Source: a virus
Lineage: Duplodnaviria; Heunggongvirae; Uroviricota; Caudoviricetes
DNA: 14,020 nt
Strand: one strand, 5' to 3'
Virus record (IMG/VR): IMGVR_UViG_2737471843_000003
Coordinates: 1 to 14,020 of that record
The translations under genes and the position numbers were made by a program. The notes under the pieces are model-generated. The model was given only the letters and a program-made list of their open reading frames with translations. It had not been told where the DNA came from and searched no databases. Below, in pieces: positions 2,604 through 13,128 of this stretch; the first letter of the stretch is position 1, and each line of letters starts with the position of its first letter.

Positions 2604-3707
2604 TCAGGAGCCGATATATTCTGGTTTCATATCTGTCAGTGTCGTTTTATACGCCTCATATAATTCACCCAGATGTGGTCGTGCAGCATTCAGCGTATTT
2701 TCCAGAGCAGTAAATTTTTGTTCTGCTTCTGGATCACCTGATGAAGGCAGGTCATTTATCATCTTCTCGATACTGGCAATAGCATTGAGACGGTGATGAC
2801 GCCGAACCACTTTTCCTTTAAGCTCGGCAAAGAATTCGCCGATCTGGTTTTTCTGATCCTCTATCTCTTGGCGTAATGCAGTGGTTTCCTCAGTCGTGGC
2901 CGCGCTTTCTATACGCTGCCGGAATTCATCAATCCACGCTTCGTCAATACGCTGTTCGATGGTTTCTGTTCGCTGCTCGCTTACCTCGCTATAATTCTGT
3001 ACCGACACAGGATTGATGATTTTTTCCTGTGGCTCTTCCAGTTCGTCCGGGGTATACACGCCCAGGATGACGTCAGGACAATAAAGGCGAGCCCAGTATT
3101 TCAACGCCAGATAGGCGAGCTGTTGTTTCGGGTTTGAGGTCCATAAAGGAGAATTACGCGTAATCACGCTGGAAAGAAACACCGGTTCTCCCCAGGTAAT
3201 CTCACTTTCACCGCGAAGAACTGCACCAACTCGAACTGAGAGACCATACTCATCTTCACTGGTCCAACATGGGATCGTTTCTTTTTTCTCATAGATTCCG
3301 CCTCCTTTGGCCGTTTTCTTAACGATCTCCACTCGGGTGCGAGAGCATTTCTCCCAGTCTCCCTCGTACTTGTAATGGAAGCGACCTACAATTGCACTTG
3401 AGCTAGAGATCACAGCGTTAACCAGTTGTGCTTCATAACCCAGAACTCCGTTTACCAGGTGTGTTTTCTGAGCCACAGCGTAGGGGTTCATGCCCCATTG
3501 CATAGCTTGCATGATGATTGCCATGCAGTCGGCAGGATTTCCGCGAAGGTGATCGGGAACTGTGACGGTGGCCTGTGCCATCAACCCGGCTACTGCCTGA
3601 AGTTGCGTCAACGCCTGAACGTTAAAAATAGTGTTACTGGCAGAAATGGTATTTGGTGTCTGCTCTGTCGTGATGATATTGGTATTTTGCATGGTCAGGT
3701 TCTCCAT
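2604..3707 (-). CDS. Single-strand annealing protein, RecT/Redbeta superfamily, partner of RecE
   Basis: ORF track 367 aa. The core ADCMAIIMQAMQWGMNPY...VNGVLGYEAQLVNAV fits the RecT/Redbeta pattern. It sits immediately downstream of recE with a 1-nt stop/start overlap. It is clearly not the canonical 269-aa K-12 RecT sequence. An alternative start at 3692 has GGAG upstream. Confidence 0.7.
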   Translation of the reverse strand: MENLTMQNTNIITTEQTPNTISASNTIFNVQALTQLQAVAGLMAQATVTVPDHLRGNPADCMAIIMQAMQWGMNPYAVAQKTHLVNGVLGYEAQLVNAVISSSSAIVGRFHYKYEGDWEKCSRTRVEIVKKTAKGGGIYEKKETIPCWTSEDEYGLSVRVGAVLRGESEITWGEPVFLSSVITRNSPLWTSNPKQQLAYLALKYWARLYCPDVILGVYTPDELEEPQEKIINPVSVQNYSEVSEQRTETIEQRIDEAWIDEFRQRIESAATTEETTALRQEIEDQKNQIGEFFAELKGKVVRRHHRLNAIASIEKMINDLPSSGDPEAEQKFTALENTLNAARPHLGELYEAYKTTLTDMKPEYIGS

Positions 3708-6700
3708 TAAGCCAGATGCAGTGCTTCAAGACGACGAAGATCAAAGTCGTTTAATTCGTCGGTATAACTTTCGGTAATCGGTGCTGGCCAGTTGTTTGTC
3801 TCCAGGGCTTCGTTTATCTGGCGTAGCGTCCGGCGATATTCCTGTCGACCAAGTTCAAGGAGTTCCTGCGAGGCTTCCACGACTGCCACCCAGTGATAGC
3901 CAGCATCTTTGTTGACGAAGATCCAGAAAAATTTGTCCAGGTTTGCCACATCGCAATACATTGCGGCGCTGAGGTGATAATCACGCTCAATAATTTCACG
4001 GTGCAGGCGATCTTTAAGTCGTTCCTGCCGCACATAACCGAGGCTGACTGACTTCACGTCAGCGCAAATGCTTTCGTATGGCAGCCGGATTTCGATATCA
4101 GGACGGACCCTGATTTCCAGCCCGGTTTCTTCATCAAACCCGAAATAGCTGATTTCAGATTTGCGATCCGGGTGGTTGAGTAGCCTTGCTGCATCGGTAT
4201 TGTTTTGCAGTGCCGCGTGAATATTTTTTGCCTGTTCATACATATCCGGACTGATAAACGTTTTCCCGGCGTTTTCTTCTTGCTGGCGTTTTTGCCAGTC
4301 CTCCAGTGTCACCAGTTCCGGGCGAATTTTCCGTGCGATTTCGGTTAATTGCTCTTTTGTGCCACTGATGTTGTAAGGCAAAGATTTAGCACGTTCTTTT
4401 TTTGCCAGTTCTGGATCTACAGTTTCAATTTGATCCAGAAGCTGCTCCCGTGCTCCACTGGTTTTCAACAGAGGAGGGAGGCTTGCGTTGTATTCTTTAA
4501 TACAGGCTTTCATTGCTGATGCTGTGTGTTTTTCCCCCTCAGGAATACGCCGAAATTCCACCGGAAGCGAACCGTAAAGGATGCCTGTTTCTTCGGCCCC
4601 AGCACTTACAGACAGTGGCTGTATAAGAGTGCTGTTGTAGCTTTCGATCCACTCTTTCATCTGCTCTGGTGTCATCAGTGCTGGCAGACTGGCATTGTGT
4701 TTTTTAATGATGGCGATCAGTTCGTTAGAAGTAGTAACCACATATTCAGGAACCGGTACCGGAATGGCATATTCATCTGCGAATTTATCCGTTTCCAGAA
4801 CATAGCTGTGAATGATCCGCCCACGCAGCAGTGCGTCACTTTCCTCGTTCGGAATAGTTCCGGCAATGTGCCGCCCGTGGTAATACATCAGGCTGATACG
4901 GGCATCCTTCAGCATCGTGCTGCTTATTCCGTTGGCGGAGTGATAAACCTCGTTCGGGAGGTTTTCATAGCGGCCTGGCTCGAAATATGACGGCCACATG
5001 ATTTCAGTTGCTACAGGAGCTGACGCTTCGCCAGTTTCATCACTGCAATTGCGATGCGGATCGCTGTCAGCATTCTCATTGTGCTGATGTTCAGCGCCTT
5101 CCATTTCCTCCGGATCTTTTTCCAGAGATTCATCCAGATTTTCTTCATTAAATGTTTCCTGATACGTTGCGTCGCCCATCGCCGCGCCACAATCAGGGCA
5201 GTTGCCCCCACCGATCTGACCGCAGGCGGTGCAGACTTTTTCCGGTTCTTGTTGCTCTTCTGGTTCAGGCTGTTTCGTTTCTGGCTCGTTTTGTTGCGTA
5301 TTTGGGCTGTTTTGTTCCGCTTTCTTGTCGTTCTGTTCCGTTTCTTGCTGGTTCTGGTTCACAGAGTCGAGGGTTTCAATCCCCTTAACCCATTTCGGAT
5401 CGTTCGGGTCGCTAATCCCTTCAACAAATTCTCCGCGAGAGGCAGCCAGTAATTTGTCTGCATCGACAGGATTTTTGGGCGGAATGTTTTTCCGGGCTTC
5501 ATGGAGTTCTGCCCGCAGTTTCTGATATTTCGCATCAACAGAATTTACCTGTGACTGAGCATCCAGCGGCTGCGTGTTCTGATGATGTTCAGTTGCATTC
5601 GGTTCCACTGTTTCAGCCGTTGCCTGTTCATCTGCCATTGCGCCAGATGGTTGTGGTTTTTCTTCATCGTCCTGTTTTCCTTCTTCTGTTACTCGCTGCG
5701 GCATCGGGGCAGAGGAGCGACCGCAGGCAATATCCACGATTTCCGGATCAGGGTTGGCATGATCGGTTTCAGTCAGTACTTTGTTCAGATATTCAGTGAC
5801 GTGTGCGGGGATGACCTCGATCCCAATTGGTGCTTCTTTCACGGACGCAACCACGATGGCGCGGGAATAATCCAGCCCGCCAGGCATGGTGATGAATTTG
5901 TCGCGGAAAACAGAAAAGGGTGGTTTATTTTCAGCGATAATTTCCTCAATGCGTTTAGCGTGTGCCGGATGAAGGTTATAAATGTCCACGTCCATTGAAC
6001 GGGCCAGTACGCCAGTGGCTACATCGCGTGCCAGTGACGTCAGATCGTGGACGAAACCTTCGCCGCGATCGGTGAGGTTCCCGCCGCCAGCATTAGCACC
6101 GGAAGCCGTGCGAGTGATGCGTGAAACACGATTTCCTTTCATCCACTCTTTTGTCAGCAGACCGCGATCGGTGTAGTCTGCGTCCAGGTATGCTTCGAAA
6201 AAAGCAGTCATCAGCCCCAGACTTGAATTGCCTGGATTAGGGAAAACTTTGTCAGTATCACGAACCAGTCTGTGAAGATCGCGAATCTCCAGCGGGTCGA
6301 GCAGGCTGGTTTTGTGGGAAACAGCTAGGGCAGTAACAGCTGGTAGTTCTTCGGCCCGTGCAATATGTAATGTCTGGAGTTCGTCGCGTGAAACGTGCGT
6401 TACCGGTTTTTCGCTGCCGTGTTGAGCAAGCCAGCGAATGGGCAGCTCTTGGCCAGAAATCGGGAGTAGCATATTCTCCTCAATCTCAGTCATGTCTTCG
6501 CCATTAACATTGGTATTGTCAGTGCTGTCTGGTTTGTACTGCGCAGAGGATGAGGGCGCGATAAATACCATTGTGATGCCATCTTCCCCGCCTTTTTCGT
6601 AACGGTTGCAGAATTCCGTATCAAATACGCCTTCTGGTGGAAGGTCATCAACAACGGGCAAATTGACGCGAACAGGTTTTTTAAAGTCATCTTCATCGTA

Positions 6701-6856
6701 GCCAGCATCGTCAATCGCAACAGCACCACGGGAGATGGCAATGGATAATTTTTTCGCTTCAGCCCAGTAGAAACCGCCTTTAATACCGAGACGTTTTCTT
6801 ACTTTGTCATTTTTTGCTTCGTAATACAGTGGGTAAACTTGTTTATCGGTGCTCAT
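3707..6856 (-). CDS. recE: Exonuclease VIII (RecE-family 5'-3' dsDNA exonuclease)
   Basis: ORF track 1049 aa. The C-terminal domain carries PD-(D/E)xK-type residues (RPDIEIR...CADVKS) and long stretches I recognise as RecE-like. It is about 180 aa longer than the 866-aa K-12 RecE as I remember it. Confidence 0.85.
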
Positions 6857-8790: not shown

Positions 8791-9180
8791 TTAGGAGGAT
8801 TTTTTCTGTTGCCTGCTTCTTAGATATTTTTCCACATACTCATCAAGCTCTTGAAGACGGATTTCGAACAGATCAATCATGCGTGCTTGTTCCGATCCTG
8901 GGAGCTGATTAAACAGTTCTAGCATTTTTTTCTGGTTATCATTTAACCACGAGTAAGTGTTTTCCTGTTCACCGAACATTAATTCTGCGGGGGAAATGCC
9001 TAGTACCTGGCCGAGGATGATCGCATCCTCAGCCCCCACACTCCTGGTGCCAGCTTCGTAGTTAGCAATACGAGAAGAACCTGACCAACCACATAGTTTT
9101 GCCAGGTTTCCCATACTTAATCCTCGATTTAGGCGAGTGGCTTTTAGTCGCTCGCCTATTTGTTCTGCAATGGTTTTCAT
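8791..9180 (-). CDS. XRE-family HTH prophage repressor (cI/RacR-like), 129 aa
   Basis: Track ORF 8791..9285. The HTH region is LSMGNLAKLCGWSGSSRIANYEAGTRSVGAEDAIILGQVLGISPAEL. I prefer the ATG at 9180; the track start at 9285 is a TTG that would overlap the ydaS start. The gene is divergent from the Cro-like gene. Confidence 0.8.
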   Translation of the reverse strand: MKTIAEQIGERLKATRLNRGLSMGNLAKLCGWSGSSRIANYEAGTRSVGAEDAIILGQVLGISPAELMFGEQENTYSWLNDNQKKMLELFNQLPGSEQARMIDLFEIRLQELDEYVEKYLRSRQQKKSS

Positions 9181-9274
9181 AGCTCCGATTTTATCACGAT
9201 GTGTGAAATTAGCGGTACTCACATATCTGTAGTTGATCTTGCTCACGAAATGTGAATAATAGAAACAGGAGGTA
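9181..9274. promoter_or_regulatory. Divergent promoter/operator region with three operator-like sites at ~24-bp spacing
   Basis: TCACGATGTGTGA (9194-9206), CTCACATATCTGTAG (9218-9232, half-site match) and TCACGAAATGTGA (9243-9255). Rightward promoter: TTGATC (9233-9238), 16 bp, AATAAT (9255-9260). Leftward -10 TAAAAT (plus 9188-9193) sits 7 nt from the repressor ATG. Confidence 0.6.
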
Positions 9275-9277
9275 ATG

Positions 9278-9520
9278 ATGAACAAAATTTCAACATATCG
9301 AAAACAGCTTGGGCTGTCTCAAAGACAACTTGCTGTTCAGTTAGGGTGGATACAAAGCCGACTGGCAAATTACGAAGCAAATTTTCGTACCCCTGGGCTA
9401 GAGGAGTGCAGAAAAATTGTTTCTACCCTTAATCGGCTTGGCGCTCATTGTGGACTTGACGATGTATTCCCCCCAGACGGTAAGCATAGCGAAAACAGCA
9501 TAGGAGCGGTTGATTCATGA
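9278..9520 (+). CDS. ydaS: Cro-like HTH protein, YdaS-like
   Basis: Track ORF 9275..9520. AGGAGG at 9267-9272 favours the ATG at 9278. The HTH region is LGLSQRQLAVQLGWIQSRLANYE. It is the first gene of the rightward operon and its stop overlaps the ydaT start (ATGA). Confidence 0.7.
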   Translation: MNKISTYRKQLGLSQRQLAVQLGWIQSRLANYEANFRTPGLEECRKIVSTLNRLGAHCGLDDVFPPDGKHSENSIGAVDS

Positions 9521-9939
9521 AAATCAGGCATGAGCATATCGAATCAGTGTTGTTGGCCCTGGCAGCCGAAAAAGGGCAGGCGTGGGTCGCTAACGCAATT
9601 ACTGAAGAATATCTGCGCCAGGGGGGCGGCGAATTGCCCCTTGTACCAGGCAAGGACTGGAACAATCAGCAGAATATCTATCACCGTTGGTTGAAAGGTG
9701 AAACGAAAGCGCAAAGGGAAAAAATTCAGAAACTGATCCCTGCGGTTCTGGCAATTCTTCCGCGCGAGCTGCGTCACCGACTCTGCATCTTCGATACCCT
9801 GGAACGCCGTGCATTACTGGCGGCGCAGGAAGCGTTGAGTACGGCAATTGATGCGCATGATGATGCAGTCCAGGCCGTTTACCGGAAAGCACATTTCAGC
9901 GGTGGTGGGTCGCCCGGCGATTCTGTCGTAGTGCATTGA
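9517..9939 (+). CDS. ydaT: YdaT-like protein, 140 aa, reported as a toxic prophage protein
   Basis: ORF track 140 aa. I recognise the sequence MKIRHEHIESVLLALAAEKGQAWVANAITEEYLRQGGGELPL as Rac YdaT from memory. It is translationally coupled to ydaS. Confidence 0.75.
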   Translation: MKIRHEHIESVLLALAAEKGQAWVANAITEEYLRQGGGELPLVPGKDWNNQQNIYHRWLKGETKAQREKIQKLIPAVLAILPRELRHRLCIFDTLERRALLAAQEALSTAIDAHDDAVQAVYRKAHFSGGGSPGDSVVVH

Positions 9940-9983
9940 TTGAAATTAATCGTGCCGGATTGTTTTGTTCGGTATCAGTTAAA

Positions 9984-10004
9984 TGTAACGCTGCGAGCGT
10001 TACA
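9984..10004. promoter_or_regulatory. Perfect 21-bp palindrome 12 bp upstream of the ydaU-like start codon
   Basis: TGTAACGCT-GCG-AGCGTTACA with 9-bp perfect arms, read directly. The same core recurs inside the downstream gene. Confidence 0.45.
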
Positions 10005-10016
10005 AGGTGAAAACAA

Positions 10017-11153
10017 ATGGCTTCAAACTGGATAAAGCTCGAGGTTATTACGCCGGATAAGCCGGAAATATTCAGGCTTGCTGAGATTCTGAATATTGAT
10101 CCAGATGCCGCATTAGGGAAGGTTATTCGCTTCTGGGCATGGGCGGATCAACAAATGATAGACGGTAATGCAGATTGTAACGCTCGCGGCGTTACAAAAA
10201 GTGCAATAGATCGCATCACTTTTATGGCTGGTTTTGCTGATGCGTTAATTCAGGTTGGATGGCTGGTCGAAAATGACGGTGGGCTTTCTCTACCTAACTT
10301 TGAACGTCATAACGGAAAAAGCTCTAAAAAACGGGCGGTTACAAACGAGCGAGTTACAAAAATACGCGAACTGAAACGAAAAGGTAACGCTGGCAGCGTT
10401 ACACAAACGGATCAAAAAGCGTTACCAGAGGAAGAGGAAGAGGAAGAGGAAGATCTAAATACTGATCTAACCCATCCCAAACCCTTCCCTTCCGGAAGGG
10501 AGTTTCGGGATTTTGTGGCTGGAGTGCTTGAGGGGAGATTATCTGGCGGTACTGCAGCGGAATTTTGTAATTCTGCGGTGGTGGCGTTGCAGGCCGCTGG
10601 CCTGGATGTCTGTCGTGAGTATCCGGTACCAGAGCGTGGAGACGGTTGCGGAGGTCGGATTGATATCGTCGTGACTGACAGGAACGGTGTCCGGTGTGGG
10701 ATCGAACTTGACCGAAATTCTCCACGACAAAAATCACTGCTCAAAATCGGCGCTGTTGAAACCGGGATATGTGTCTTGCGGCGCAGTGATATCGCAAGGC
10801 ACACCGAGCAGGGAATTCTGGTTATCGGTGGGGCTGTTCGCCAGAAAAAATTTGACCCGTTGTCAGTTGATCTGCCCGACTGGTTGCCAGAAACACTCTG
10901 GCATGAGTGGGTCCAGTTCAGGCAGGCATTGCGAAAACCGATTCGAACGGAGCAGGGCGCTAACGGGGCGATACGGGAACTGGAAAAATTCCGTCAGCAG
11001 GGGTTTACACCTGAGCAGGTGATTCGACACAGCATCGCCAATGAATACCAGGGCCTGTTCGCGCCGAAAGGTGTTCGGCCTGAGACGTTGCTCCGACAGG
11101 TTAACACCGTCTCGTTGCCGGACAGTGCGATCCCGCCAGGCTTCAGGGGGTAA
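10017..11153 (+). CDS. ydaU: Replication initiator / replisome organiser, YdaU-like, with a poly-Glu linker and an extra central domain
   Basis: ORF track 378 aa. The N-terminus MASNWIKLEVITPDKPEIFRLAEILNID...VIRFWAWADQQ resembles the DUF1376 N-terminal pattern of lambdoid initiators. It sits just upstream of the DnaC-like gene. It is longer than the 285-aa K-12 YdaU as I recall it. Confidence 0.75.
   Translation: MASNWIKLEVITPDKPEIFRLAEILNIDPDAALGKVIRFWAWADQQMIDGNADCNARGVTKSAIDRITFMAGFADALIQVGWLVENDGGLSLPNFERHNGKSSKKRAVTNERVTKIRELKRKGNAGSVTQTDQKALPEEEEEEEEDLNTDLTHPKPFPSGREFRDFVAGVLEGRLSGGTAAEFCNSAVVALQAAGLDVCREYPVPERGDGCGGRIDIVVTDRNGVRCGIELDRNSPRQKSLLKIGAVETGICVLRRSDIARHTEQGILVIGGAVRQKKFDPLSVDLPDWLPETLWHEWVQFRQALRKPIRTEQGANGAIRELEKFRQQGFTPEQVIRHSIANEYQGLFAPKGVRPETLLRQVNTVSLPDSAIPPGFRG
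10176..10425. repeat. Iteron-like array of GTTACA-core repeats inside the initiator gene, candidate ori
   Basis: TGTAACGCTCGCGGCGTTACA (10176-10196); direct GTTACAAA half-sites at 10338-10345 and 10353-10360; palindrome GTAACGCT-GGC-AGCGTTAC (10384-10402); half-site AGCGTTAC (10418-10425). A-rich stretches lie between them. Confidence 0.45.
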
Positions 11154-11159
11154 CAGACC

Positions 11160-11906
11160 ATGAAAAATATTGCGACAGGAGGCGTTCTGGAGCGTATCCG
11201 CAGACTGACCCCACCACATGTAACCGCCCCATTCAGAACGGTTGCGGAGTGGCGCGAGTGGCAACTTGCTGAAGGGCAGAAACGTTGCGAGGAGATCAAC
11301 CGCTTGAATCGTCAGTTGCGGGTGGAAAAAATCCTGAATCGCTCTGGCATCCAGCCGTTGCACCGCAAATGTTCGTTTGCGAATTACCAGGTGCAGAACG
11401 ACGGCCAGCGATACGCGTTAAGCCAAGCGAAATCCATCGCCGATGAACTGATGACCGGGTGTACAAATTTTGCGTTCAGCGGAAAACCTGGTACCGGGAA
11501 GAACCATTTAGCGGCAGCTATCGGGAATCGCCTGCTGAAAGACGGTCAGACAGTGATTGTGGTTACCGTGGCTGATGTTATGAGTGCCCTGCATGCCAGC
11601 TATGACGACGGGCAGTCAGGCGAAAAATTTTTGCGGGAACTGTGCGAAGTGGATCTGCTGGTTCTTGATGAAATTGGCATTCAGCGCGAGACGAAAAACG
11701 AGCAGGTGGTACTGCACCAGATTGTTGATCGCCGGACAGCGTCGATGCGCAGCGTGGGAATGCTGACAAACCTGAACTATGAGGCCATGAAAACATTGCT
11801 CGGCGAGCGGATTATGGATCGCATGACCATGAACGGCGGACGCTGGGTGAATTTTAACTGGGAGAGCTGGCGTCCGAATGTCGTCCAGCCAGGAATTGCG
11901 AAGTAA
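11160..11906 (+). CDS. ydaV: DnaC/IstB-like AAA+ helicase loader, YdaV-like
   Basis: ORF track 248 aa. Walker A motif [15 protein letters not shown] and Walker B LLVLDEIG are present. It lies immediately downstream of the initiator gene. Confidence 0.85.
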
Positions 11907-11928
11907 TTTTTACCGGGAGAAAAATTTA

Positions 11929-12690
11929 ATGGAGACTGTTTTTGACGCACTGAAAGCAATGGGAAAAGCCACATCCTTAGAACTTGCTGCGCGACTTGGT
12001 ATCAGTCGTGAAGAAGTGCTGAACGAACTATGGGAACTGAAAAAAGCTGGTTTCGTTGATAAAAGCGCGTACACCTGGCGTGTGGCTGATAACAACGTTC
12101 AGCAGGAACAGCCAGCGCCGGAAGAACAGCCGGAAGAAACCACCACGGCAACAGTAGCGAAAATCTCAGAGTGCGATTTAACCGCGACGATTGAACAACG
12201 CGGACCACAAACGGCGGATGAGCTGGCTGCGTTGTTCGGTACCACATCACGCAAAGTAGCTTCAACGCTGGCAATGGCAATCAGCAAGGGGCGTCTGATT
12301 CGCGTAAATCAGAACGGTAAATTTCGTTACTGCATACCGGGCGATAATTTACCAGCAGAGCCGAAAGCTGCATCGGTAACGGAAACTGATGGTAAGGCCT
12401 TTCCTCAGCCCGCAGGTGTTGCGTTACCAGTACAGGAAGCGGCAACACAGGAAGATATTAAAACAGAAACTGTGGCGGACATTGTGCAGTCGCTGCCATC
12501 GTTCACCGAAACGCGAGCGGATGACCTGATTTTACCATCGCTGCATATGGCAAACCGCGAACTGCGTCGGGCGAAAAGTCATGTCCAGAAGTGGGCGCGA
12601 GTCTGCGCCGCGCTGCGGGAGCTGAACAAGCACCGGGATATTGTTCGACAGATTACTGATTCTTCCCGCCGTGTTGTATCGGAAAAGTGA
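11929..12690 (+). CDS. Hypothetical phage protein with two winged-helix-like segments
   Basis: Track ORF 11878..12690. Two ATG starts are possible: 11878 (GGAGAG upstream, overlaps ydaV) and 11929 (GGGAGA upstream). The segments [30 protein letters not shown] and [30 protein letters not shown] look like winged-helix folds. Function unknown. Confidence 0.55.
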
Positions 12691-12705
12691 TTGCCGGAGG
12701 CACTT

Positions 12706-13128
12706 ATGGCAAAAGTATTTACACAAGAAGAGCGGGAAAAAATTAAAGGGCAGGTTGTTGAGCTAGTACGCCGGAGTGGGCGCGAGACGTTACGGCAACT
12801 GGAAGCCAAGACAGGTGCGACAAGATATCTGATGAGCGTTCTCGCCAGAGAGCTTGTTGCCAGTGGCGATGTATACAACTCTGGTTACGGGTTATTTCCG
12901 TCTGAACAGGCCCGTAAGGACTGGCAAAACGCCCGCAAAAAACTCTCCAGGGCAAAGGTGAAAAAAACGGTTGTGGTTGATCCTGACCTTATCTGGTCAT
13001 TACCAGACGGAGAAATACGCCGCTACGACAGGCGCCTGAATATAATCTGTCGCGAGTGCCGGAAGAGCGAAGCTATGCAGCGTGTACTGGCTTTCTATCA
13101 GGGTAATTTTCAGGAGGTAGCGCAGTGA
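12706..13128 (+). CDS. Hypothetical phage protein, 140 aa
   Basis: Track ORF 12691..13128, which begins with TTG. The ATG at 12706 is preceded by GGAGG with 5-nt spacing. Its stop overlaps the GTG start of the methyltransferase gene. Confidence 0.55.
   Translation: MAKVFTQEEREKIKGQVVELVRRSGRETLRQLEAKTGATRYLMSVLARELVASGDVYNSGYGLFPSEQARKDWQNARKKLSRAKVKKTVVVDPDLIWSLPDGEIRRYDRRLNIICRECRKSEAMQRVLAFYQGNFQEVAQ

Follow-up and report, generated by a model that had tools for sequence, protein, structure and literature searches.

The replication-initiator gene lies on the plus strand at positions 10017-11153 of the window, that is, of the whole 14,020-nt stretch of viral DNA that was analysed. The list of open reading frames and its translation give a protein of 378 aa (stop codon included in the coordinates), and an AAGGTG ribosome-binding site stands 8 nt 5' of the ATG. 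The protein matches phrog_2509 ('replication initiation protein') with E = 5e-86, and phrog_2509, phrog_1347 and phrog_6451 each account for one of its three parts. On the 5' side the gene is flanked by a YdaT-family gene (YdaT_toxin) and on the 3' side by a gene for a DnaC/IstB-like ATPase, within the Rac-like prophage order int-recT-recE...repressor-cro-ydaT-initiator-ydaV. The latter gene (11160-11906, plus strand) encodes a YdaV-like AAA+ protein of the DnaC/IstB type (Pfam IstB_IS21, E = 1.5e-19; Bac_DnaA), is labelled ydaV by RefSeq in near-identical loci, and presumably provides the helicase-loader partner of the initiator. Based on the coverage by the three phrog families, the homology to DnaT and the prophage gene order, the open reading frame is probably a four-part replication initiator belonging to a Rac-like lambdoid prophage, with a candidate origin inside its gene and a nuclease-fold module. 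It joins the lambda O-like initiator class through the phrog_2509 match; Pfam Phage_rep_O gave no match in the protein. A full-length AlphaFold model computed without an alignment had a pLDDT of 44 and was uninformative.

The N-terminal domain and its basic arm (residues 1-137; 10017-10427, plus strand) form the presumed origin-binding part, defined by the phrog_2509 match, which covers residues 1-150. This part had no Pfam match, and DUF1376 (PF07120) was absent even at E <= 1, whereas the same Pfam model detects K-12 YdaU with E = 2.7e-26 and the L004 allele with E = 7e-25. A BLASTP comparison of the N-terminus with that of K-12 YdaU gave E = 13. The C-terminal domain (residues 286-378; 10872-11150, plus strand), on the other hand, is common to K-12 YdaU, and the last 255-258 nt of the gene are ~93% identical to K-12 ydaU at the nucleotide level. 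The earlier note had called the protein YdaU-like, a description that holds for the DnaT-like C-terminal domain and the Rac ydaT-ydaU-ydaV order; membership of the whole protein in the YdaU family was rejected because DUF1376 is absent. In summary, K-12 YdaU shares with the window protein the Rac-like position after ydaT and before ydaV, the near-identical C-terminus and a 17-nt hinge element, GATCTAAAnACnGATCT, and differs in its unrelated N-terminus, its different binding-site repeats and its lack of both the poly-Glu tract and the central module.

The C-terminal domain matches PDB entries 2ru8 'Primosomal protein 1' (E = 1.8e-4) and 9zbt 'DnaT' as well as phrog_6451 'primosomal protein'. 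The alignment places residues 286-378 opposite DnaT 92-179 and extends through the ...VNTVS-PDS-IPPGFRG tail at the C-terminus, which is near-identical (...PDSxIPPGFRG). The overall match to DnaT is nevertheless weak (NCBIfam DnaT scores 15.7 against a cut-off of 201 bits), and the initiator lacks the N-terminal half of DnaT, which serves oligomerisation. Judging by homology, it is presumably through the DnaT-like C-terminus that the YdaV loader and DnaB receive the complex.

Three perfect 19-bp palindromes of the consensus GTAACGC-N5-GCGTTAC are found in and just 5' of the gene. Palindrome 1 (9985-10003), a candidate initiator-binding site or auto-operator, precedes the ribosome-binding site, palindrome 2 (10177-10195) lies within the N-terminal coding region, and palindrome 3 (10384-10402) is followed by a half-site, GCGTTAC (10419-10425, plus strand), which ends 2 nt (CA, 10426-10427) before the first GAGGAA at 10428. 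By chance, 0.32 such palindromes would be expected, and three were reached in 0 of 200 shuffles; GCGTTAC occurs 10 times in the window, with 7 occurrences in 9985-10425 (1.05 expected). A possible fourth, weak palindrome at 10576-10591 was dropped, as it fails the pattern search at 3 mismatches. The palindromes are type-specific: all five type-A loci have them, at matching positions, and no type-B (DUF1376-type) locus does; in the DUF1376-type gene the corresponding place is taken by AAGCAGATGTTCAA iterons of its own. Palindromes 2 and 3 are also kept in Klebsiella phage ST11-OXA245phi3.2, whose gene is ~70% identical overall; palindrome 1 is not conserved there.

The 19-bp palindromes, which lie within the coding sequence of the non-DUF1376 N-terminal domain and shortly before it, would most likely be the sites that this domain recognises. 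Because they are type-specific and so placed, the palindromes point to a lambda-like candidate origin; like ori in the lambda O gene, it would be part of the initiator gene itself. In lambda, O is modular, the ori sites lie in the O gene and the partner gene is adjacent. The window gene resembles this arrangement in its modular initiator (a presumed origin-binding part at the N-terminus, a flexible hinge and a C-terminus that would recruit the helicase-loading partner), in having repeated dyad-symmetric sites within the gene for the initiator and a strand-asymmetric segment after them, and in the adjacent gene for a presumed helicase-loading partner. It differs in that its protein has a DnaT-like C-terminus and no Phage_rep_O domain, that its partner is a DnaC/IstB-like ATPase and not lambda P, and that three palindromes ~190-207 bp apart plus half-sites replace the four tightly clustered iterons of lambda. 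To our knowledge, lambda O has no nuclease-fold domain.

The basic arm is followed by an acidic hinge. The earlier note had read GAGGAA repeated four times at 10428-10451 (plus strand) as eight glutamates, and in the 378-aa frame these are indeed Glu138-Glu145, followed by Asp146. Tandem Repeats Finder reports a period of 6 with 4.5 copies and 100% matches over 10427-10453, a perfect hexamer array of 24-27 nt that is far beyond chance in 14 kb. These 27 nt are also the longest homopurine run of the window, the next longest measuring 14 nt. The note's proposal that the repeat could change length in 6-bp steps without loss of frame is borne out by natural alleles with two, three and four units. 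The 38 long (module-bearing) E. coli alleles have two units in 7 genomes, three in 23 and four in 8; in a sample of 60 out of 693 genomes, three units were counted in 51, four in 5 and two in 1, with 3 partial or unclear cases; the Klebsiella phage has 4.5 units. The allele of E. coli E9 differs from the window gene by a single repeat unit and otherwise shows 0 mismatches in 1131 nt. The invariant copy number across strains that would have spoken against slippage is therefore not what the survey found. The natural variation shows that the hinge gains and loses 6-bp units by replication slippage with the frame kept.

Directly 3' of the repeat lies the 17-nt element GATCTAAATACTGATCT (10452-10468), which contains two GATC sites and encodes DLNTDL. 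It has 15 of 17 nt in common with K-12 ydaU despite the unrelated N-termini, and the homology stops directly 3' of it. The element is the left breakpoint both of a long/short polymorphism and of an exchange of N-terminal cassettes: L004, which combines DUF1376 with the central module, is similar to the window on either side, the sole difference being a ~510-nt N-terminal/iteron cassette.

As defined by alignment, DNA junctions and phrog_1347, the central module spans T152-Q276 (10470-10844, plus strand) and consists of a leader, THPKPFP, and a PD-(D/E)xK-fold domain whose globular core occupies residues 160-271 (10494-10829, plus strand; alpha-alpha-beta-beta-beta-alpha-beta(-beta-beta)). The extra domain announced by the earlier note is therefore real, while the end proposed for it, 10800, falls 44 nt short. 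Its absence from YdaU, as stated in the note, is seen in the alignment with the 285-aa K-12 protein. The alignment also shows the module missing from the common 262-aa allele of the window gene, where ~11 residues (PLNPPRQKRAS) replace it. This short form makes up ~655 of 693 E. coli alleles (~94%) and occurs in isolated phages such as vB_EcoS-666R9; the 38 long alleles represent ~6%. The module is dispensable for basic initiation, given that most E. coli alleles of the initiator (~94%) do without it. Long and short alleles are otherwise 94-97% identical, and presence or absence concerns one precise site. The term "inserted domain" is uncertain as history: many unrelated initiators carry the module in their hinge, and the hinge of the short alleles is similar to the leader motif of the module, so that short alleles may be deletion derivatives. 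The MAFFT pairing of the short hinge 'LNPPRQK' with the module helix 'RNSPRQK' was judged coincidental, as the leader motif 'THP(N/K)PP' fits better. An intein, for which a first Cys/Ser, a terminal His-Asn and a Cys/Ser/Thr at +1 of the downstream extein were the criteria, was rejected, since the junctions ...TDL|THPKPF... and ...AVRQ|KKFDP... have no splicing residues. The locus offers a compact natural case of three layers of initiator modularity, namely a putative origin-specificity cassette swapped at the 17-nt junction, an optional hinge domain and a hinge length varied by slippage.

No Pfam or NCBIfam family covers the module. Its sole match is phrog_1347 ("unknown function"), with E = 9.5e-22 when the full-length protein is the query and 6.1e-22 when the module is searched by itself, and stand-alone homologues reach 1e-46 to 3e-55. 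A structure model of the module (pLDDT 92.8), with which the viral structure library agrees, contains the alpha-beta-beta-beta-alpha-beta core of the PD-(D/E)xK superfamily. The faint resemblance to this fold that the earlier note had seen in GRIDIVVTD (residues 213-221) and GIELDR (residues 228-233) is thus substantiated by the model, in which the module has a PD-(D/E)xK nuclease fold; the domain is moreover conserved and under purifying selection. A Foldseek search of the module against the PDB returned no E-value <= 1e-3. The profile PF18741 (REase_MTES_1575) scores the window protein at 12 bits (E = 0.23) against a gathering threshold of 38.2, and matches 24 of 60 homologues, none of which reaches the threshold (best E = 2.4e-4); further weak homologue matches include the PD-(D/E)xK families Hjc, Mrr_cat, BamHI, UPF0102 and NucS_C, all below their gathering thresholds.

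The signature residues of the module, E201, D216 (10662-10664), E230 (10704-10706), D232 (10710-10712), K239, S240 and K243, show 87-100% conservation across 138 members, 81 of them embedded and 57 stand-alone, which share <= 50% identity. D216 and E230 are conserved at 97-99%, the position of the canonical Lys is taken by Asp232 (99%), and K239 and K243 in the helix are conserved; P0105, a stand-alone member, carries Asn in place of D216. Compared with the known members of the superfamily (NucS, AF1548/Mrr-like, BamHI/BstYI/OkrAI, Hjc, PF18741), the module shares the core, the canonical Asp at the start of beta2 and the Glu in beta3, and the AF1548 profile alignment pairs D216 and E230 with D...E(CK). 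It differs in its E-x-D motif followed by a conserved helix R-x-K-S-x-x-K, in an invariant RGDG loop before beta2, and in its occurrence in replication modules instead of restriction, repair or defence contexts. BamHI uses E-x-E, and triads of the type D...E-x-(D/E), with an acidic third residue as in the module, are catalytic in BamHI-type enzymes. By this analogy, Asp in place of the canonical Lys would be compatible with catalysis, and any activity is putative.

The module is not confined to one kind of initiator. It is embedded in initiators with unrelated N-termini (Phage_rep_O of the lambda O type, DUF1376, HTH_36/DnaD_N and wHTH), and its homologues inside initiators form 296 clusters at 50% identity. 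In three unrelated N-terminal classes it always follows the junction motif NTDL|T(H/Q)PKPFP. A word-indexed homologue search returned almost only near-identical fragments, and its profile version added only stand-alone enterobacterial members. In E. coli, Salmonella, Xenorhabdus and Stx2a phages, the stand-alone form, a 120-125-aa first gene ahead of helicase and primase, is flanked by cI-cro-cII-like genes on one side and by genes for a DEAD helicase and a Toprim primase on the other. It keeps this position across genera and in ~100 Stx phage records. ORF35 of Stx2a phage P13374 and its counterparts in TL-2011c and phi191 belong to the same family, phrog_1347, and like the window module to lambdoid early-right operons; there the domain is free-standing (~125 aa) before a DEAD/ResIII helicase and Toprim primase, whereas in the window it is fused into the initiator before a DnaC-like loader. 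The module family is an uncurated one tied to phage replication modules, either embedded or stand-alone, and a well-conserved PD-(D/E)xK family without any Pfam or NCBIfam model. No publication on the domain emerged from a literature search on YdaU, MTES_1575, oriJ and initiator-nuclease combinations. A role as an anti-phage defence nuclease was rejected in view of the replication context and of the PADLOC defence models, which gave no match for the window protein and only E = 0.047 for a stand-alone homologue.

Several other readings of the hinge region deserve consideration. The repeat tract may matter mainly as DNA, a homopurine flank of low stability beside the initiator sites that would stand in for the A+T-rich segment of lambda ori, the glutamates being a tolerated by-product. 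This is possible, if somewhat doubtful. The tract starts 3 bp after the last half-site, no homopurine run in the window is longer, and the 30-mer of lowest stability in 9900-11200 begins within it, at 10441. Furthermore, the stretch CAAAAAGCGTTACCA(GAGGAA)4GA, ~45 nt comprising half-site and repeat, is 100% identical between E. coli and the Klebsiella phage, including the alternating GAG/GAA synonymous positions, compared with ~70% elsewhere in the genes. Lambda ori itself lies in the linker-coding part of O, where in-frame deletions can spare O function. The tract is, however, only 50% A+T, and its stability minimum is shallow (-34.0 vs -34.3 kcal/mol elsewhere). Slippage alone homogenises tandem repeats, so that identical units do not prove a constraint at the DNA level. 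No such tract stands at the equivalent place in DUF1376-type genes, and the low-complexity hinges of distant initiators, some of them acidic, use different codons. That the long allele is a gene broken by a junk insertion, by comparison, can be given hardly any credence. It is what RefSeq implies, since PGAP annotates long alleles as two incomplete CDS pseudogene fragments and leaves 3448-3816 of L001 unannotated. Yet a single uninterrupted frame of 374-399 aa runs through all seven long alleles examined, and full-length proteins of 376/378 aa of the window initiator type are in GenBank. With the module's pN/pS of 0-0.13 (11 synonymous vs 0 nonsynonymous differences between the window and L007), the confident fold prediction and the 296 homologous clusters, a pseudogene is refuted, and RefSeq systematically annotates as pseudogene fragments what are functional long alleles.

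As to what the module does, the near-invariance of its acidic cluster D...E-x-D and of its Lys/Ser/Lys suggests a metal-dependent site for binding or cleaving DNA. The mechanism tentatively preferred is an accessory nuclease or nickase held at the origin by the initiator, optional in the hinge, which would act on opened or branched origin DNA. The module could instead have ceased to be a nuclease and serve as a structural spacer, oligomerisation or DNA-binding domain that aids initiator assembly at the origin. The Asp at the catalytic Lys position of (D/E)xK is in line with this, as are the module's place exactly at the flexible hinge, where it can be left out, and the common dimerisation of PD-(D/E)xK domains; but it is in metal-dependent active sites, more than in interfaces, that one typically finds four acidic residues plus R/K/S kept nearly invariant, as they are in the 138 members, and the catalytic triads of BamHI-type enzymes likewise make such a scaffold unlikely. 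Lower still is the probability that the module is a selfish homing-type nuclease cassette in a permissive hinge, cutting module-less alleles near the 17-nt junction and spreading by repair. Such a cassette would account for the precise presence/absence in nearly identical alleles, the sporadic distribution (~6%), the association of the same module with three unrelated N-terminal classes behind one junction motif, and the small free-standing homologues in the same genomic neighbourhood; the insertion also alters the sequence directly right of the conserved 17-nt element, as would be expected of a recognition site that straddled the junction. L004, however, is explained by an N-terminal cassette exchange that involves no mobility of the module. 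The conserved position of the stand-alone form is unlike that of typical, sporadic homing genes, the deep divergence inside initiators suggests long-term residence, and neither a target-site duplication nor intein motifs were found at the module.

Should the accessory nuclease at the origin be active, it would be a new enzymatic component of lambdoid replication initiation and a concrete candidate for origin recognition or processing in some temperate phages, including the Stx2a-converting phages of outbreak strains. A more specific and distinctly speculative version, which we regard as improbable, sees in the phrog_1347 domain an unrecognised replication-initiation nuclease, tied to the origin through the initiator or acting alone before a helicase-primase pair, that nicks DNA in a site- or structure-specific way at the origin or beside it, perhaps in the conserved GATC-bearing hinge element. 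Nicking of this kind would offer a route to a 3'-OH primer or to a switch from theta to rolling-circle replication. The stand-alone phrog_1347 protein would then be the missing origin-recognition factor in the non-O/P replication module of Stx2a phages.

Within this replication initiator, the central domain, a member of a conserved, uncurated family found inside or beside phage replication initiators, is of more interest than the repeat. Repeat and domain are both encoded by a 378-aa ORF (10017-11153, + strand). By its Pfam matches, the window is a Rac-like lambdoid prophage. On the - strand are the integrase (735-1811), RecT (2604-3707), RecE/ExoVIII (3707-6856), and an HTH repressor (8791-9285); the + strand encodes a Cro/YdaS-like protein (9275-9520), YdaT (9517-9939), the initiator, the DnaC/IstB-like AAA+ protein YdaV (11160-11906), DUF1627 (11878-12690), and DUF977 (12691-13128). 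In this gene order, the ORF occupies the usual initiator position of lambdoid phages, and it is matched by phrog_2509, 'replication initiation protein' (E = 5e-86). Elsewhere in the window, the RecE/ExoVIII-like ORF (- strand) contains an imperfect 21-nt tandem repeat (5270-5356, 4.1 copies, 74% matches) that would encode an in-frame 7-aa repeat.

The earlier description of this initiator as YdaU-like holds for its C-terminus but not for its N-terminus. The last 255-258 nt of the gene are ~93% identical to K-12 ydaU, and a DnaT-like C-terminal domain (10872-11150) is present in both proteins; residues 286-378 are homologous to the DnaT C-terminal domain (PDB 2ru8, 9zbt), including the tail ...PDSxIPPGFRG. 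Pfam DUF1376 matches K-12 YdaU with E = 2.7e-26 but has no match in the window protein or its short allele, and BLASTP between the two N-termini returns E = 13. The initiator as a whole does not fit the YdaU family; its N-terminus is here named type A and the DUF1376 N-terminus type B. Over its last ~19 residues, the DnaT-like domain is very similar to the end of the host's own primosomal protein, DnaT, which suggests that the phage may copy the interface by which DnaT hands over to the helicase. The DnaT-like domain presumably recruits YdaV and DnaB.

The extra central domain reported in the earlier note was recovered by alignment, in which K-12 YdaU lacks it, and the faint resemblance to a PD-(D/E)xK-type fold noted for it was borne out by structure prediction together with structure and profile matches. 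HMMER, run exhaustively against 1.84 billion representative proteins, returned 296 clusters at E <= 1e-3, and an AlphaFold2 model built from 60 aligned domain segments reached pLDDT 92.8 and pTM 0.86, with the topology alpha-alpha-beta-beta-beta-alpha-beta(-beta-beta). Matches tabulated for this model (values in brackets) are TIP26 (8.6), NucS (8.0), AF1548 (7.9), the Upx restriction enzyme (7.7), XisH (7.2), Bax1 (7.2), Can2 (7.1), BamHI (6.7), Hjc (6.7), McrC (6.6), and Vsr (5.3). Foldseek against the PDB pointed weakly in the same direction (best E = 2.4e-3), and a viral structure library returned the phi191 homologue first, followed by viral PD-(D/E)xK nucleases. In a profile search of PDB sequences, AF1548 was matched at E = 0.022, with D216 and E230 paired with its D...E(CK). 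Pfam REase_MTES_1575 matched 24 of the 60 homologues, all below threshold, and their other weak Pfam matches included Hjc, Mrr_cat, BamHI, UPF0102, and NucS_C. No curated family for the domain was found in Pfam, NCBIfam, or PADLOC, the sole family covering it being phrog_1347 ('unknown function'), and no study of it was found in the literature. Across 81 embedded and 57 stand-alone members, E201, R207-G-D-G210, G213, D216, E230, D232, R237, K239, S240, K243, and R255 are 87-100% conserved, and the window protein retains all of them. The module is a member of a conserved, uncurated PD-(D/E)xK family.

By sequence comparison, the module is translated and under purifying selection: a single open frame is kept in all seven long alleles examined, pN/pS in the module is 0-0.13, and between the window and another long allele (L007) the module shows 11 synonymous but no nonsynonymous changes. 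Even so, the NCBI PGAP annotation in RefSeq splits each long allele (L001 3001-4131, L002, L004-L007) into two 'incomplete' pseudogene fragments, with the module unannotated. This labelling as pseudogene debris is a mis-annotation, the frame being intact; proteins of the long type are deposited in GenBank as 376/378-aa 'hypothetical protein' entries.

Embedded copies occupy the hinge of initiators whose N-termini are unrelated to one another. These N-termini include Phage_rep_O, as in P0007 (module 78% identical), Proteus P0038, and Providencia phage PSTCR7lys, as well as DUF1376, HTH_36/DnaD_N, and other winged-helix domains; the C-termini also differ (e.g., Phg_2220_C). A low-complexity hinge and the leader motif NT(H/Q)PxP(F/P)P usually precede the module. 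On its own, the domain is a protein of 120-125 aa whose gene comes first in a helicase-primase replication module: it follows cI-cro-cII-like genes and precedes those for a DEAD/ResIII helicase and a Toprim primase. This arrangement was seen in prophages of E. coli, Salmonella, and Xenorhabdus and in the Stx2a-converting phages P13374 (ORF35, L014 3926-4303), TL-2011c, and phi191. All stand-alone homologues compared (L014, L009-L013, L017-L018) are annotated 'hypothetical'. Both positions consistently link the family to the beginning of phage replication modules.

The module is optional. In the common allele (L003, 262 aa), ~11 residues replace T152-Q276 (10470-10844), so that the variable segment measures 376 nt in long and 36 nt in short alleles. 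DNA homology between them ends directly 3' of a 17-nt element, GATCTAAATACTGATCT (10452-10468), and restarts at AAAAAATT (10845). This element, which carries two GATC sites for Dam, with an AGATCT at the left edge, shares 15 of 17 positions between types A and B despite their unrelated N-termini and marks the mosaic junction. The module is carried by 40 genomes, 38 of type A and two of type B. One type-B carrier, L004, is 96-100% identical to the window in the cro-ydaT region and 95-100% identical from the module through the C-terminus into ydaV (its first ~240 nt). Across 9278-11400, the difference in the E. coli prophages L004 and L005 is confined to a ~510-nt N-terminal/iteron cassette of DUF1376 type, with the right crossover within the 17-nt element. 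Since both flanks match and the cassette alone differs, the simplest history is exchange of an origin-specificity cassette at this junction rather than movement of the module, L004/L005 being a clean natural swap. Mosaics of this kind are documented to arise when Rad52-like recombinases recombine in a relaxed manner (PMC3945230), and the window prophage encodes such a recombinase, RecT. The hinge of short alleles, P(L/P)NPPR(G/Q), is similar to leader variants in distant long forms (e.g., THPNPPR(R)G), a hint that short alleles derived by module loss.

The module presumably binds or cuts DNA. Its motif is D...E-x-D, not D...E-x-K; the active-site residues of BamHI are D94/E111/E113, and by this analogy an acid in third place would still allow catalysis. 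The leading reading, although held at less than even odds, is an accessory nuclease or nickase tethered to the origin; a non-catalytic scaffold or DNA binder is rather unlikely. A selfish homing-type cassette is more doubtful again; no target-site duplication was found at the long/short junctions. Some other role takes up the remaining probability. The 17-nt element is a possible origin element, recombination hotspot, or nuclease target.

As the earlier note had it, (GAGGAA)x4 at 10428-10451 encodes eight glutamates (Glu138-Glu145), and the motifs it quoted are found at residues 213-221 (GRIDIVVTD) and 228-233 (GIELDR). Tandem Repeats Finder scores 10427-10453 as a perfect array of period 6, and the repeat forms a 27-nt homopurine run, the longest in the 14-kb window (runner-up 14 nt). 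The predicted slippage in 6-bp steps was also observed, the copy number varying among related prophages. The type-A hinge occurs in 693 of 5,426 complete E. coli genomes; among 60 evenly spaced samples of these, 51 have three units, five have four, one has two, and three are partial or unclear. The 38 long type-A alleles have, from match lengths, four units (8 genomes), three (23), or two (7), and translation confirmed E8, E6, and E4 versions. In E. coli strain E9, the gene matches that of the window at 1131/1131 shared positions, the sole difference being one GAGGAA unit, a direct trace of recent slippage. The homologue of Klebsiella phage ST11-OXA245phi3.2 (256 aa) has (GAGGAA)x4 plus GAA, which makes nine Glu, so the tract is of long standing in type-A initiators. 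The repeat is thus an ordinary hinge varying by slippage, although its place beside probable origin sites is notable.

These sites are three perfect 19-bp palindromes, GTAACGC-N5-GCGTTAC, at 9985-10003 (abutting the initiator's ribosome-binding site), 10177-10195, and 10384-10402, with a half-site GCGTTAC at 10419-10425, 3 bp ahead of the repeat. None of 200 shuffled sequences had three such palindromes. They are kept at the same positions in 5/5 type-A loci and are absent from the type-B loci compared; these binding-site-like sequences are specific to the initiator's N-terminal type. The Klebsiella phage retains the second and third palindromes, and CAAAAAGCGTTACCA(GAGGAA)4GA is 100% identical between it and the window against ~70% for the remainder of the alignment. 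The 30-mer of lowest stability in 9900-11200 begins at 10441, the minimum being shallow. In lambda, ori is situated within the stretch of O that codes for the linker, where in-frame deletions leave the O protein functional. By analogy, the palindromes are probably the initiator's binding sites, marking the origin, and the hinge-coding DNA would be part of it; the first palindrome could also act as an auto-operator of the initiator gene. At the equivalent place in K-12 ydaU (L008 1750-1841), upstream of the 17-nt hinge element, lie four to five AAGCAGATGTTCAA direct repeats, whose adjacent clustered copies are spaced 33 bp. They are candidate iterons of oriJ, the active but repressed origin carried by Rac (PMC3945230), for which no sequence-level mapping was found in the literature. 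Between the second and third palindromes of the window, a 14-nt tandem repeat, AAACGAGCGGTTAC (x2.2, 10329-10360), contains two degenerate GTTAC half-sites, GCGGTTAC and GAGTTAC, which may be extra weak initiator sites.
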